Below, one piece after another: positions 2,493 through 42,679 of a DNA stretch of 64,000 nucleotides. Positions within the stretch are counted from its first letter, which is position 1. Each line of letters begins with the position of its first letter. The DNA lies in NCBI RefSeq assembly GCF_044647545.1, contig NZ_CP172818.1, one strand, 5' to 3'. Source of the DNA: Escherichia coli. GTDB taxonomy: Bacteria > Pseudomonadota > Gammaproteobacteria > Enterobacterales > Enterobacteriaceae. The translations under genes were made by a program, and so were the position numbers. The notes under the pieces were generated by a model, which worked only from the letters and a program-made list of their open reading frames with translations, did not search any database and was not told the origin of the DNA.

Positions 2493-3944
2493 TTAGCACA
2501 ACGGACGTACAGCTTCGCGCATTCCTTTTTCGAGAATCGCATCCAGGTCATTAGCAACCTGCTCGACCAGACCAGGCACTTGCGTCAGGTCCTGCTCCCA
2601 GTGGTCTTTTTCTGCCAAAACAATCGCTACCAGTTCCTGGGTGCCGATAACACGGTTACGATGCTGGCTCCAGAGTTGCTGATAACGTTCCAGCCAGTGG
2701 GCATCGTCCTGTACCGGATATGTTTCTCCATTACGCTCACCGCGATAGAACGCAATCAATGCTGCTAATGCGAAAGTAAGGCGCGCCGGAAGTGTGCCGT
2801 TTGCCTTCTGCCCTGCCAGCAGCTGCGGCAGGATACGGGTGCGGAACTTGGTCATACCGTTGAGCGCGATAGACAGCAGCTGATGCTTAATGTACGGGTT
2901 ACGGAAACGCCCGGTGACAGCACTGGCGAAAGATTCCAGTTCATCACGAGGCAAATCCAGTACCGGAATAATCTCTTCGTAGATGGCTTTTTCAACGAAT
3001 GCGCAAATTTCAGCATCGTTCATCGCTTCACCTACGGTATCCAGCCCTGCCTGGAACGCCACCGGCACCAGCGCGGTGTGCGCACCGTTGAGGATTGCCA
3101 CTTTGCGCTCTTTATACGGTTTAATATCGTCAACAATCAGCACGTTGAGCGGATATTTGTCCAGACGCAGCTCAGTCGCTAAGGATTTCGGCCCCTGAAT
3201 CACAAACAGGTAAAAGTGTTCAGCGGTGTCGAGGAAACCATCGTGATAACCCAGTTCTTCTTCCAGTTTAGCCACTTCATCACGCGGATAGCCGGTAACG
3301 ATACGGTCCACCAGCGTAGAACAGAAGCTGTTAGCCTGATCCAGCCATTGAATAAATGCTTCTGGCAGTGCCCACTCTTGCGCGTAGCGCAGCACCAGTT
3401 CACGCAGTGCATCGCCGTTATAGTCGATCAGTTCACATGGTATGATGATCCAACCTTTATCCTGCGCTCCGTTGAAATGGCTAAAACGTTCGAACAGCAG
3501 ACGGGTCAGTTTTGCCGGATAACTTACCGCTGGCGCGTCATCGAATTTATCGCCCGCATGGTAGCTGATACCCGCTTCGGTGGTGTTAGAGAAAACAAAG
3601 CGCATTTCCGGGTTGTGCGCCAGTTTCAGGAATTCATCGTATTCACTGTAGACGCTGATTTCACGATTAACAGAGCGAATCAGACGCGCGTCGCTGACCG
3701 CTTCCCCCTTCTCGTTCAGACCACGGATAATGGTGGTGTACAGACCATCCTGCGTGCTCAGTGACGGCGGGAATGAAGTTTCAATCGGACGAACAACGAC
3801 CACGCCAGAATTCAGATCGGTGTGCTCATTCAGGAGATCGATTTGCCAGTCAACAAAGGCGCGCAGGAAGTTACCTTCACCAAACTGAATGATACGTTCT
3901 GGATACTGTGCACCGGGAAAATCGCGACGATTTAGTGTTTTCAC
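2493..3944 (-). CDS. uxaB: altronate oxidoreductase (tagaturonate reductase), 483 aa
   Basis: 483-aa [33 protein letters not shown]...; recognised. Confidence 0.95.
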
Positions 3945-14930: not shown

Positions 14931-16118
14931 ATGAACTTATCCCTACGACGCTCTACCAGCGCCCTTCTTGCCTCGTCGTTGTTATTAACCATCGGACGCG
15001 GCGCTACGCTGCCGTTTATGACCATTTACTTGAGTCGCCAGTACAGCCTGAGTGTCGATCTAATCGGTTATGCGATGACAATTGCGCTCACTATTGGCGT
15101 CGTTTTTAGCCTCGGTTTTGGTATCCTGGCGGATAAGTTCGACAAGAAACGCTATATGTTACTGGCAATTACCGCCTTCGCCAGCGGTTTTATTGCCATT
15201 CCTTTAGTGAATAACGTGACGCTGGTGGTGCTCTTTTTTGCCCTTATTAACTGCGCCTATTCCGTTTTTGCTACCGTGTTGAAAGCCTGGTTTGCCGACA
15301 ATCTTTCCTCCACCAGCAAAACGAAAATCTTCTCAATCAACTACACCATGCTCAACATTGGCTGGACCATCGGTCCGCCGCTCGGCACGCTGTTGGTGAT
15401 GCAGAGCATCAATCTGCCCTTTTGGCTGGCAGCTATCTGTTCCGCGTTTCCCATGCTTTTCATTCAAATTTGGGTAAAGCGCAGCGAGAAAATCATCGCC
15501 ACGGAAACAGGCAGTGCCTGGTCGCCGAAAGTTTTATTACAAGATAAAGCACTGTTGTGGTTTACCTGCTCTGGTTTTCTGGCTTCCTTTGTTAGTGGCG
15601 CATTTGCTTCATGCATTTCACAATATGTGATGGTGATTGCTGATGGGGATTTTGCCGAAAAGGTGGTCGCGGTTGTTCTTCCGGTGAATGCCGCCATGGT
15701 AGTTACGTTGCAATATTCCGTGGGCCGCCGACTTAACCCGGCTAACATCCGCGCGCTGATGACAGCAGGCACCCTCTGTTTCGTCATCGGTCTGGTTGGT
15801 TTTATTTTTTCCGGCAACAGCCTGCTAATGTGGGGTATGTCAGCTGCGGTATTTACTGTCGGTGAAATCATTTATGCGCCGGGCGAGTATATGTTGATTG
15901 ACCATATTGCGCCGCCAGGAATGAAAGCCAGCTATTTTTCCGCCCAGTCTTTAGGCTGGCTTGGTGCTGCGATTAACCCATTAGTGAGTGGCATAGTACT
16001 TACCAGTCTGCCGCCTTTCTCGCTGTTTATCATCTTAGCGTTGGTGATCGTTGCTGCGTGGGTGCTGATGTTAAAAGGAATTCGTGCAAGACCGTGGGGG
16101 CAGCCCGCGCTTTGTTGA
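14931..16118 (+). CDS. ydeE: MFS transporter YdeE, 395 aa
   Basis: 395-aa ORF, multiple TM segments. Confidence 0.9.
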   Translation: MNLSLRRSTSALLASSLLLTIGRGATLPFMTIYLSRQYSLSVDLIGYAMTIALTIGVVFSLGFGILADKFDKKRYMLLAITAFASGFIAIPLVNNVTLVVLFFALINCAYSVFATVLKAWFADNLSSTSKTKIFSINYTMLNIGWTIGPPLGTLLVMQSINLPFWLAAICSAFPMLFIQIWVKRSEKIIATETGSAWSPKVLLQDKALLWFTCSGFLASFVSGAFASCISQYVMVIADGDFAEKVVAVVLPVNAAMVVTLQYSVGRRLNPANIRALMTAGTLCFVIGLVGFIFSGNSLLMWGMSAAVFTVGEIIYAPGEYMLIDHIAPPGMKASYFSAQSLGWLGAAINPLVSGIVLTSLPPFSLFIILALVIVAAWVLMLKGIRARPWGQPALC

Positions 16119-16245
16119 TTTAAGTCGAACACAATAAAAATTTAATTCAGCCTTCGTTTAGGTTACCTCTGCTAATATCTTTCTCATTGAGATGAAAATT
16201 AAGGTAAGCGAGGAAACACACCACACCATAAACGGAGGCAAATAA

Positions 16246-16341
16246 TGCTGGGTAATATGAATGTTTTTATGGCCGTACTGGGAATAATTTTATTTTCTGG
16301 GTTTCTGGCCGCGTATTTCAGCCACAAATGGGATGACTAAT
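16246..16341 (+). CDS. mgtS: small membrane protein MgtS (YneM), 31 aa
   Basis: atgctgggtaatatgaatgtt... encodes MLGNMNVFMAVLGIILFSGFLAAYFSHKWDD; terminator hairpin follows. Confidence 0.8.
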
Positions 16342-16367
16342 GAACGGAGATAATCCCTCACCTAACC

Positions 16368-16407
16368 GGCCCCTTGTTACAGTTGTGTACAAGGGGCCTG
16401 ATTTTTA
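16368..16407 (+). terminator. rho-independent terminator of mgtS
   Basis: ggccccttgt...acaaggggcc stem followed by tgattttta. Confidence 0.6.
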
Positions 16408-16415
16408 TGACGGCG

Positions 16416-16513
16416 AAAAAAAACCGCCAGTAAACCGGCGGTGAATGCTTGCATGGATAGATTTGTGTTTTGCTTTTACGCTAACAGGCATTTTCCTGCA
16501 CTGATAACGGATC
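16416..16513 (-). ncRNA. mgrR: MgrR sRNA (PhoP-dependent, Hfq-binding); coordinates approximate
   Basis: Minus-strand PhoP box, candidate -10 TACTGT about 22 bp downstream, and a terminator (ccgccggtttactggcgg + T8) about 98 nt from the predicted start. Confidence 0.6.
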
Positions 16514-16546
16514 GTTGACACAGTAGCATCAGTTTTCTCAATGAAT

Positions 16547-16564
16547 GTTAAACGGAGCTTAAAC
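16547..16564 (-). promoter_or_regulatory. PhoP box (GTTTAA-N5-GTTTAA direct repeat) upstream of mgrR
   Basis: Minus strand reads gtttaagctccgtttaac. Confidence 0.6.
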
Positions 16565-17449
16565 TCGGTGAATCACGTTTTGTTCGTCAATAAACATACA
16601 GCGATTTCTTCCGGTTTGCTTACCCTCATACATTGCCCGGTCCGCTCTTCCAATGACCACATCCAGAGGCTCTTCAGGAAATGCGCGACTCACACCTGCT
16701 GTCACGGTAATGTTGATATGCCCTTCAGAATGTGTGATGGCATGGTTATCGACTAACTGGCAAATTCTGATACCTGCACGACATGCTTCTTCATCATTAT
16801 CCGCTTTGACAATAATGATAAATTCTTCGCCCCCGTAGCGATAAACCGTTTCGTAATCACGCGTCCAACTGGCTAAGTAAGTTGCCAGGGTGCGTAATAC
16901 TACATCGCCGATTAAATGCCCGTAGGTATCATTAACCAATTTAAATCGGTCAATATCCAACAACATTAAATAAAGATTCAGAGGCTCAGCGTTGCGTAAC
17001 TGATGATCAAAGGATTCATCAAGAACCCGACGACCCGGCAATCCCGTCAAAACATCCATATTGCTACGGATCGTCAGCAAATAAATTTTGTAATCGGTTA
17101 ATGCCGCAGTAAAAGAAAGCAACCCTTCCTGAAAGGCGTCGAAATGCGCGTCCTGCCAGTGATTTTCAACAATAGCCAACATTAATTCCCGACCACAGTT
17201 ATGCATATGTTGATGGGCAGAATCCATTAGCCGAACGTAAGGTAATTCATCGTTATCGAGTGGCCCCAGATGATCAATCCACCGACCAAACTGGCACAGT
17301 CCATAAGAATGGTTATCCGTTATTTCTGGCTTACTGGCATCTCTCGCGACCACGCTGTGAAACATACTTACCAGCCACTGGTAGTGGGCATCGATAGCCT
17401 TATTGAGATTTAACAAGATGGCATCAATTTCCGTTGTCTTCTTGATCAT
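16559..17449 (-). CDS. dgcZ: zinc-regulated diguanylate cyclase DgcZ (YdeH), 296 aa
   Basis: GGEEF motif (YRYGGEEFIIIV); internal Met MIKKTTEIDAILL... Confidence 0.9.
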   Translation of the reverse strand: MIKKTTEIDAILLNLNKAIDAHYQWLVSMFHSVVARDASKPEITDNHSYGLCQFGRWIDHLGPLDNDELPYVRLMDSAHQHMHNCGRELMLAIVENHWQDAHFDAFQEGLLSFTAALTDYKIYLLTIRSNMDVLTGLPGRRVLDESFDHQLRNAEPLNLYLMLLDIDRFKLVNDTYGHLIGDVVLRTLATYLASWTRDYETVYRYGGEEFIIIVKADNDEEACRAGIRICQLVDNHAITHSEGHINITVTAGVSRAFPEEPLDVVIGRADRAMYEGKQTGRNRCMFIDEQNVIHRV

Positions 17450-27436: not shown

Positions 27437-28011
27437 CTACGGCAGTGCTGGCCATTCAATATCCTGTGCAGTTGACGTATCAACACGGTTCAGCAATACC
27501 CGATACTTTTTCCATGCTTCCAGCAACGGGGTTTCTTCCTCCGTTGCAATTTCCAGATCTGCAGCATCCTGAAGCGGCGCAATATGCTCACTGGCTACCT
27601 GCATCAGGTTGTTTTTTTTTCTTCCGCTTCCCGTATCCGAAACAGTTTTTCTGCTTCCTCATCATTCACCCAGGATACGCCGTCCCACTTCTGATACTCC
27701 CCTGCTGGCGACAACCAGGTGACATTCTCTGGTAGCGGTCCGAGTTCAGAAATAAACAATGCGTCCCCCGACGCCACGTCATAGACCGTTTTACCACGAT
27801 GGTCTTCAACAATATTCCACGATTCATTTTCACTGTTAAAAACTGCCACAAAGCCAGCAGGAATTTCCGGTGGGGCGATATCTGTAGAATTAGCTGGCAG
27901 CCCTGTATGAGGTGGAATATATGCGTCACCTTCACCAATAAACTCATTAGTTCCGGCCAGCAGGTTATAAATTTTTACGGTACGTGATTGTTCACTCATT
28001 CTGAATGCCAT
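27437..28011 (-). pseudogene. tfaQ: tail fibre assembly protein TfaQ, frameshifted at a 9-nt homopolymer (27612-27620)
   Basis: N-terminal frame stops after ...EAEEKKTT at 27604; the C-terminal part ([22 protein letters not shown]...DIEWPALP*) continues in another frame to a stop at 27437-27439. Confidence 0.7.
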
Positions 28012-31308: not shown

Positions 31309-31579
31309 AATGTTACCGTAATATGTGAGTATCCATCGACTAGACACTAAGCAAAAAAGCTCCCGAAGGAGCCTTCATTTTCACTTTCTTAAATCTAACG
31401 ACAGATGGCTAACATTTAAGTATTGTGAAATATTATCAAATGTAATCATCATTGATTTACAAAAGATACATTTTGCCCCGAAAGGATTTCTGTCAGAAAC
31501 ATCAAAAGATGATGTTCTATACTGAGAACCATGGCAACACGGGCATCTAAAGTGAATATGGTTTGTAATATTTTCTACC

Positions 31580-31792
31580 TCAAAGTGCCACTACATGAAC
31601 AGCTGCAGGGCCTTTAGGTCCGTTCTCAATACCAAATTCGACTTCCTGATTCTCAGTTAACGTTTTGAAATCGTTGCTCTGAATAGCTGAGAAATGCACA
31701 AACACATCTTTGCTACCATCTTTCGGCGTGATGAAACCAAAACCTTTTTCAGGGTTAAACCATTTCACTAAACCAGTCATTTTGTTAGACAT
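31580..31792 (-). CDS. cspI: cold-shock protein CspI, 70 aa
   Basis: [38 protein letters not shown]...; long AT-rich upstream leader. Confidence 0.9.
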
Positions 31793-32156
31793 CATTATTA
31801 CCTTTTGAAGAAGTTAGCCCTTGGGCAGAATGGTCCGAAAAAAAAATATCAGAGAGAAAAACCAACAAGGAAATCTCAAGAGGTACAAATAATAAAATTA
31901 TAACAATGACTGCTTCAGATAATTTTGTAACAAACCAGAACACCATTAACGCATGATTAACCAACCATAGCAAGGATTACTTTTGTAAAGAAAAACACAC
32001 GAATGAAACAATAGCTTTATTTATTAATAAAACGTGTCATTCTGTCTAATGACCTTTTATCTTACCCTTAAGATTTCAAGGATTTTGACTCATGGAAGAG
32101 TCCTTTTTATTTAAATTTCACATTCAGCGCTAAAAATAATCCGATTTAATATTAAT

Positions 32157-34103: not shown

Positions 34104-34466
34104 TTGATTTTATTAGTAACAAGTATTTTTTATATTTTAATAATATATTTAAAGCAGATAATAAAAAACCCGCCTGAGCGGGTTTGAGATTGTGGTGCTT
34201 TTTGTGGGAGTCATCCACTTACGCACTTTGTTTTGCCATGCCAGCAGTTAGCTTCTGCTGTAAAACTATTCATGCAGCAAACCTGCACTTCACCACAATG
34301 GTTAGCATACTTTTCCTGATTAAGATTTTGCCAAATATGCTAGCCATTGTTTCATGTATTGGACCTCCTTACTTTTTATTAAAGAGATCCAATATTCACT
34401 ACTCTGTCCGTATCTCTACTCAGGCATCAGCCTTCTTCGTTATCGTATACAGACGAGCGATGAATT

Positions 34467-34682
34467 TTAATCAGTAATGATGACATTTGCTGCTGCAGGA
34501 CCTTTAGCACCACTCTCTATAGAGAAGGTAACCTTTTGACCTTCAAATAAGGTTCGATAATTATCATTCTGAATCGCAGAAAAATGCACAAACACATCTT
34601 TACTACCATCAACAGGAGAAATAAAGCCGAAACCTTTATCAGCGTTAAACCATTTTACTAAACCAGTCATTTTATTTGACAT
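34467..34682 (-). CDS. cspB: cold-shock protein CspB, 71 aa
   Basis: [38 protein letters not shown]... Confidence 0.9.
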
Positions 34683-34982
34683 TCTACATTCCTTAACTTG
34701 AGCCTTTCGGCATAAATGGTTTGCATAACAGAAACGACTTCGTACTTAATTGGAGAGACTCAAAGAAGGAATAAGTGAATAACACCTGAAATGAGAACTG
34801 CTTTAGTAAACTACTTCGTATATCGTCTGTTCTTCAAACCGACGCAATCATTAACGCATAGTTGAACATATGAAGCAATGTTTATTTTAGACATCCAGCC
34901 ATCTTCAACCCCATCAAAAAACTATAGCTTTCTTCAGGAACGTGTGTATAGTGCGCCAAGTTATCAGTATTAAGGAATTTTT

Positions 34983-42621: not shown

Positions 42622-42679
42622 TTTCTGGTGACGTTTGGCGGTATCAGTTTTACTCCGTGACTGCTCTGCCGCCCTTTTT
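42622..42679 (+). ncRNA. dicF: DicF sRNA (53 nt) plus its terminator U-tail
   Basis: tttctggtgacgtttggcggtatcagttttactccgtgactgctctgccgccc followed by ttttt. Confidence 0.8.

Follow-up and report, generated by a model that had tools for sequence, protein, structure and literature searches.

The convergent, PhoP-activated transcription units mgtS-mgtT and mgrR of Escherichia coli

Which genes lie in the short interval between ydeE and dgcZ of this E. coli DNA, and do they form one functional module or are they simply neighbours that answer to the same regulator? A first-pass annotation, made from the letters of the sequence, placed the 31-residue ORF mgtS opposite the small RNA MgrR and described the two as a compact PhoP-responsive module. 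Within the window (the whole stretch of DNA analysed, 64 kb in length) we find that positions 16100-16700 are the E. coli ydeE-mgtS-mgtT-mgrR-dgcZ locus, and we regard it as close to certain that mgtS-mgtT and mgrR are two transcription units that converge and are both activated by PhoP. Both gene identifications were correct, with HMM, Rfam and K-12 mapping in agreement, but that account of the locus lacked mgtT, located between the two genes with an overlap on each side. Reading raw sequence can evidently pick out tiny regulators to the base, yet miss a small ORF that overlaps them out of frame.

Nothing here is new as a discovery. All three genes are curated in K-12, and the experimental literature on them dates to 2008-2009. 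Convergent, PhoQP-dependent transcription of mgtS and mgrR has been described (bioRxiv 10.1101/2021.06.30.450655), and the K-12 literature reports direct activation of both yneM (mgtS) and mgrR by PhoP. The sequence elements required for the published functions are all intact in the window.

Genes of the ydeE-dgcZ interval

The 601-bp region was matched in 5416 of the 5426 complete E. coli genomes of our genome collection search, where the annotation around the matches reads ydeE, mgtS, mgtT and dgcZ. Five of these matches are plasmid-borne and a few genomes carry two or three copies; a PIRT-Seq study also places the operon elsewhere in a subset of isolates (PMC12350097). In the curated K-12 record mgtS occupies 1622646-1622741, mgtT 1622741-1622845 and mgrR 1622817-1622914, which after subtraction of an offset of 1,606,401 correspond to window positions 16245-16340, 16340-16444 and 16416-16513, respectively. 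Over 521 aligned bases the window and K-12 differ at seven positions: 16139 upstream of the mgtS promoter, 16301 in mgtS (synonymous), nucleotide 4 of MgrR, and four at the dgcZ end. Relative to K-12, one base is therefore changed in MgrR and none in the MgtS or MgtT proteins.

The gene mgtS (yneM), encoding a 31-residue inner-membrane protein, is placed on the plus strand at 16245..16340 by K-12 mapping, HMMs and its coding signal. Its product is MLGNMNVFMAVLGIILFSGFLAAYFSHKWDD. The ORF length first given for it was right, while the start (16246) was one base past the true ATG at 16245. The protein has the sequence of K-12 b4599 unchanged and shares its upstream and downstream context; the differences from the K-12 gene are GGG in place of GGT (both Gly) at 16301 and the upstream SNP at 16139. 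It scores 80.6 bits against NCBIfam NF033842 (cut-off 35; residues 1-31 of 31) and 88.2 bits against Pfam PF22865 (cut-off 27). Across genera, the ratio of amino-acid to codon entropy, H(aa)/H(codon), at orthologous loci is 0.31 in the mgtS frame versus 0.89-0.91 off frame, and single-step codon variants divide into 93 synonymous and 49 non-synonymous changes in frame, as against 22:122 and 16:134 in the other two frames. These comparisons argue strongly for coding constraint, with the MgtS amino-acid sequence under purifying selection.

MgrR, a 98-nt sRNA, lies on the minus strand at 16416..16513, as indicated by Rfam, the terminator scan, K-12 mapping and its predicted fold. This is exactly the interval predicted at first pass, and exactly K-12 mgrR once the offset is applied. 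Of the checks suggested there, a covariance-model search over the whole window matched RF01407 (STnc560/MgrR) at 16334-16547(-) with 281.9 bits, where the threshold is 55 (E = 1.8e-64; model positions 1-214, full-length), and alignment to annotated mgrR gave a coincident interval with 97 of 98 nucleotides identical. In Salmonella MgrR goes by the name STnc560. With its 214 nt the Rfam model covers more than the sRNA itself: it takes in 34 nt of the promoter on one side and, in the downstream direction, crosses the mgtS hairpin and reaches into the stop codon of mgtS. Compared with K-12 mgrR (b4698), position, strand, length, seed, terminator and flanking genes are the same, and the single difference is a C instead of U at the unpaired nucleotide 4. 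In E. coli the allele of the window is the commoner one, being present exactly in about 4145 of the 5416 records.

From its 5' end MgrR comprises a hairpin (16509..16479), an A-rich Hfq site, the seed U55-A68 (16459..16446), and a terminator with its U8 tail (16442..16416). The terminator, ACCGCCGG-TTTA-CTGGCGGT followed by T8, was called by the terminator scan and accounts for the one proposed about 98 nt downstream, the RNA running from 16513 to 16416. The stretch AAAAGCAAAACACAAA, followed by the terminator hairpin and U8, has the architecture of Hfq-dependent sRNAs (an internal A-rich ARN site and a Rho-independent terminator with a U-tail), in keeping with the Hfq-dependent features described for MgrR (PMC6239178; bioRxiv 10.1101/2021.06.30.450655). 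In the predicted fold (z = -2.9) a hairpin at the 5' end is followed by an open, A-rich central part that includes the seed and then by the terminator, in agreement with the probed structure in PMC6239178, from which the seed positions U55-A68 are also taken.

Homologues of MgrR were collected by an exact-match scan of species-representative genomes with a 19-nt seed block, which recovered 107 loci, nearly all in Enterobacteriaceae and from about 30 genera. RNAalifold on 42 diverse homologues recovered the terminator helix alone, with 2 compensatory pairs; the 5' hairpin was lost because divergence in sequence and length defeats the MAFFT alignment, and it folds individually in 100 of 101 homologues. 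By MFE folds the seed is accessible in 30 of 101, a count that is uninformative. Three of the 107 loci, all enterobacterial in sequence, sit in assemblies labelled as a Caldithrix MAG (L008), a Bacteroidetes MAG (L103) and Chryseobacterium sp. 18061 (L106). In the Caldithrix MAG the stretch from mgtS to the MgrR seed is identical to the window, with both small proteins the same and two base changes upstream of the mgtS promoter. These three loci are probably bin or assembly contamination.

The suggestion that such regulators are easily missed holds for the sRNA but not for the small proteins. RefSeq E. coli genomes annotated by PGAP (e.g. NZ_CP033850.1, 4076919-4080519) list mgtS and mgtT and lack the mgrR ncRNA, which is annotated in the curated K-12 record only; annotation of the sRNA is thus systematically missing from thousands of E. 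coli genomes, and automated RefSeq annotation of this species still omits it.

PhoP sites and promoters of the two units

For mgtS, alignment of 48 upstream regions predicts a PhoP box, ATTCAgccttcGTTTA, at 16145..16160 on the plus strand, in the form ATTCA-N6-GTTTA with half-sites 11 bp apart and the proximal GTTTA strongly conserved. Twelve nucleotides separate this box from the -10 hexamer TAATAT (16173..16178, plus strand), conserved as TAnnnT/TAnTAT in the same 48 regions. PhoP dependence of yneM/mgtS is published, including in work from the Yadavalli laboratory (PMC11429745); we infer the location of the site from the alignment. Transcription probably starts near 16187, and the position of the hexamer is consistent with the 58-nt mgtS 5'UTR that has been used experimentally (bioRxiv 10.1101/2021.06.30.450655).

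Within this leader, translation and PIRT-Seq point to a candidate upstream ORF, CDS58 (16192..16245, plus strand; 17 residues, MKIKVSEETHHTINGGK), whose start is only about 5 nt from the inferred 5' end of the mRNA. CDS58 was a candidate in the 2025 transposon-reporter (PIRT-Seq) work, where it gave the faintest western signal of the study (PMC12350097). Its TAA stop overlaps the mgtS ATG (TAATG) as at the mgtS-mgtT junction, so that in E. coli three small ORFs (CDS58, mgtS and mgtT) are chained via stop/start overlaps and converge on MgrR. Among the orthologous loci CDS58 is intact in E. coli only, which makes its function doubtful. The leader also carries a purine-rich block, AAGGTAAGCGAGG, at 16200-16214 (plus strand) that is conserved across genera; in Kluyvera its GAGG equivalent is the Shine-Dalgarno sequence, and elsewhere an insertion separates the block from a second Shine-Dalgarno sequence.

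At mgrR, attention had been drawn to a perfect repeat, GTTTAAGCTCCGTTTAA, at 16564..16548 on the minus strand. The repeat is present, and it is the sole such site in the 64 kb. By chance 0.12 exact PhoP cores are expected in 64 kb, and one was present in 10 of 100 shuffles; the repeat is thus only modestly improbable on its own, and the case rests on its location, the combination of features and homology. Relative to the canonical PhoP box, (T/G)GTTTA-N5-(T/G)GTTTA in a -35 placement (PMC7667037), it fits all 10 core bases but is shifted upstream by one helical turn, to -51 to -35. Its distal GTTTAA half-site (16559..16564, minus strand), which completes the perfect repeat, is the last Val codon and stop of dgcZ (GTT TAA), and this half is not conserved outside Escherichia, with 98 of 102 loci having at least 2 mismatches in 5.

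A position matrix built from 102 distinct MgrR loci instead identifies a conserved PhoP box, GTTTAAcattcATTGAG, at 16537..16553 (minus strand; -40 to -24), 12 nt upstream of the -10. Only the proximal half of the perfect repeat is retained in it: this GTTTA (16553..16549) is invariant across the 102 loci except for 3 with G at the fourth base, and its conserved partner is (A/G)TTGA, 11 bp downstream at 16542..16538 (ATTGA in 41 loci and GTTGA in 27, with TT invariant and GA dominant). Compared with the canonical box the conserved pair holds the position that replaces the -35 but has a degenerate second half-site, ATTGA. Three phased half-sites are accordingly present at E. coli mgrR, and from sequence either pair could serve as the PhoP site. 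The textbook-looking repeat is in part the dgcZ stop and specific to the lineage, while the conserved site is one half-site nearer the -10. That element, a candidate -10 at first pass, is an extended -10, TGcTACTGT (16520..16528, minus strand), conserved as TGnTAnnnT with TG, TA and the final T near-invariant in the 102 loci. A consensus scan called no sigma-70 promoter, as expected of PhoP-activated promoters lacking a -35. Between the dgcZ stop and the start of MgrR there are only 45 nt, in which no terminator-like site was called, so dgcZ transcripts probably continue into mgrR and end at the MgrR terminator.

The mgtS box and the conserved mgrR box share the same geometry. In each promoter a conserved pair of GTTTA-type half-sites stands 12 nt upstream of a -10 that is likewise conserved. 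By published accounts low Mg2+, acting through PhoQ/PhoP, switches on both. MgtS binds the P-type Mg2+ importer MgtA and raises its level (bioRxiv 10.1101/2021.06.30.450655), and it also acts on the phosphate symporter PitA, on which MgtS and MgrR both act according to Yin et al. 2019 as cited in PMC11429745. MgrR, a class II Hfq-dependent sRNA that represses eptB and ygdQ via U55-A68 (PMC6239178; bioRxiv 10.1101/2021.06.30.450655), pairs through this central seed with the eptB, ygdQ and pitA mRNAs and represses them; pitA is an MgrR partner in Salmonella RIL-seq.

Linkage of mgtS and mgrR across Enterobacteriaceae

Co-regulation of the two units does not make them an obligate module. A convergent mgtS was found no more than 330 nt from mgrR in 49 of the roughly 107 loci, so the word module, right as regards co-regulation, overstates the linkage, which holds in about half of MgrR loci. 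The genera with linked genes include Escherichia, Citrobacter, Salmonella, Kosakonia, Kluyvera, Atlantibacter, Phytobacter, Yokenella and Pluralibacter, whereas mgtS is not adjacent to mgrR in Klebsiella, Raoultella, Lelliottia, Leclercia, most Enterobacter and others. One genome, Enterobacteriaceae bacterium RIT691 (L020), has two MgrR seed blocks 1.6 kb apart (1436-1454 and 3030-3048 of the extracted locus), one adjoining mgtS and the other not, which suggests a duplicated MgrR.

Within the conclusion that these are convergent PhoP-activated units, we consider it fairly probable that mgtS and mgrR are independent neighbours, i.e. two genes in the PhoP regulon which came to be adjacent in some lineages and whose convergence has no function. 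The unlinked genera listed above fit this explanation well, as does the presence of a separate promoter and terminator for each gene, and synthetic constructs show that each works alone (bioRxiv 10.1101/2021.06.30.450655). It sits less easily with the retention of adjacency in at least nine genera with the two terminators close together, with a spacing that in Kluyvera collapses to a few bases, and with two products that act on the same process and, in the account of Yin et al. given in PMC11429745, on PitA as a shared target.

Facing terminators and the mgtT reading frame

The mgtS gene had been credited with its own terminator, and a conserved hairpin with a tail is indeed present, although it sits inside the mgtT ORF. 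On the plus strand at 16368..16408, folding and comparison support an intrinsic terminator with a 13-bp interrupted stem: the hairpin GGCCCCTTGT...ACAAGGGGCC (16368-16398; dG about -21 kcal/mol) is followed by the tail TGATTTTTAT. The consensus terminator scan did not call this hairpin, since its perfect stem encloses an 11-nt 'loop' that falls foul of the loop-length rule, and it was confirmed by folding instead. An equivalent hairpin with a T-rich tail occurs in 41 of 41 orthologous loci with a spacer between the genes, at -19 to -30 kcal/mol and beginning about 25-30 nt past the mgtS stop, with compensatory stem changes among them (e.g. GGCCCTTTACG/CGTAAAGGGCC and GCTTCTTACA/TGTAAGAAGC). 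The mgtS and MgrR terminators are nearly back to back, the mgtS tail as delimited here ending at 16408 and MgrR at 16416, about 8 nt away.

Between and across these elements runs mgtT (16340..16444, plus strand), a 34-residue small protein, MNGDNPSPNRPLVTVVYKGPDFYDGEKKPPVNRR, assigned by K-12 b4775, PGAP annotation and Pfam PF23498 (96.3 bits; cut-off 27). One base is common to its ATG and the stop codon of mgtS (gacTAATGaac; TAATG at 16338-16342), and the ORF crosses the mgtS hairpin, its last 29 nt lying antisense to the 3' end of MgrR. The 105-nt ORF, the TAATG overlap and the 29-nt antisense overlap with mgrR are all identical to those of K-12. Ribosome profiling revealed MgtT and tagging confirmed it (bioRxiv 10.1101/511675; Weaver et al. 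2019); the protein is described as PhoQ-dependent, encoded in an operon with mgtS and not membrane-associated (PMC11429745). As the frame has, from its sequence, no stop codon on E. coli transcripts that end at the mgtS hairpin, full reading to the stop would need transcripts that pass the hairpin; mgtT, coupled to mgtS by TAATG, is probably translated by termination-reinitiation from mgtS on this read-through fraction.

Purifying selection on the MgtT peptide was not apparent in ORF length, frame comparison or comparison with a divergent E. coli. The frame varies from 7 to 83 residues across genera and is truncated or extended outside Escherichia; H(aa)/H(codon) for the conserved start region is 0.70 in frame versus 0.72-0.84 off frame; and the window and the divergent E. 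coli locus (L023) differ by about 7 non-synonymous changes to 1 synonymous, as counted by eye. The peptide would thus appear to be under little or no selection. An N-terminal octapeptide, MNxD(N/S)PxP, was considered as a case of protein-level conservation and set aside as a weak lead, the frame comparison giving it no support.

Might the overlap itself be the point of the arrangement? In a scheme of cis-antisense and terminator control, termination at the mgtS hairpin would be modulated by mgtT translation running into or through it, the read-through mgtS-mgtT RNA would be antisense to at least 29 nt of the MgrR 3' end, and the two PhoP outputs would interact via transcriptional interference, an RNA duplex or decay of non-stop mRNA. 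We consider this improbable. Its appeal lies in the geometry, with mgtT overlapping both the mgtS hairpin and the mgrR terminator and lacking a stop on hairpin-terminated E. coli transcripts, together with the retention of the ATG at the mgtS stop in 41 of the 49 linked loci, an ORF end that is always just before, inside or beyond the hairpin whatever the length of the frame, and third-position variation in Pro codons 6 and 8. Yet the N-terminal region of mgtT has no clear coding-frame signal, and retention of the ATG may equally stem from a tandem stop (TAA-TGA) or from constraint on the 3'UTR sequence. Neither deletion nor overexpression of mgtT gave a phenotype (PMC11429745), many genera carry mgrR without an adjacent mgtS, and eight Kluyvera-type loci have mgtS beside mgrR with neither an mgtT start nor a separate mgtS hairpin. 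No usable data on mgtS read-through or from Term-seq turned up in the literature searched.

The more specific proposal, that mgtT matters through the act of translation and not through its peptide, with reinitiating ribosomes meeting the mgtS hairpin and setting the read-through into the mgrR terminator, strikes us as a shade less probable still. If it were true, there would be an antisense link between mgtS mRNA and MgrR that responds to low Mg2+, and the terminated transcripts would be non-stop messages that expose mgtS mRNA to tmRNA-dependent decay.

The eight Kluyvera-type loci (L026, L053, L055, L063, L071, L090, L091 and L095) are labelled Kluyvera apart from one, an unclassified Enterobacteriaceae isolate. 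In seven of them only 1-3 nt lie between the mgtS stop and the A-run of the MgrR terminator, and in the remaining one (L063) the spacer is about 20 nt. In these loci the tail that follows the shared hairpin on the plus strand is not rich in T, so that mgtS mRNA may extend antisense into mgrR.

Lastly, the idea that the locus is a chance assortment of a short ORF, hairpins and a repeat without gene function, for which one could cite the shuffle frequency of the PhoP core and the lack of a called sigma-70 consensus promoter, is refuted by the Rfam E value, HMM matches well above curated cut-offs, the curated K-12 annotation, conservation in more than 100 species and an extensive experimental literature.

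Four other Rfam matches in the window were above threshold: IS009 at 27471-27668 (-), two cspA-type thermoregulator leaders of cold-shock paralogues at 31534-31951 (-) and 34451-34843 (-), and DicF at 42623-42674 (+). Together they suggest that a Qin-type cryptic prophage region lies downstream of the mgtS-mgrR locus.
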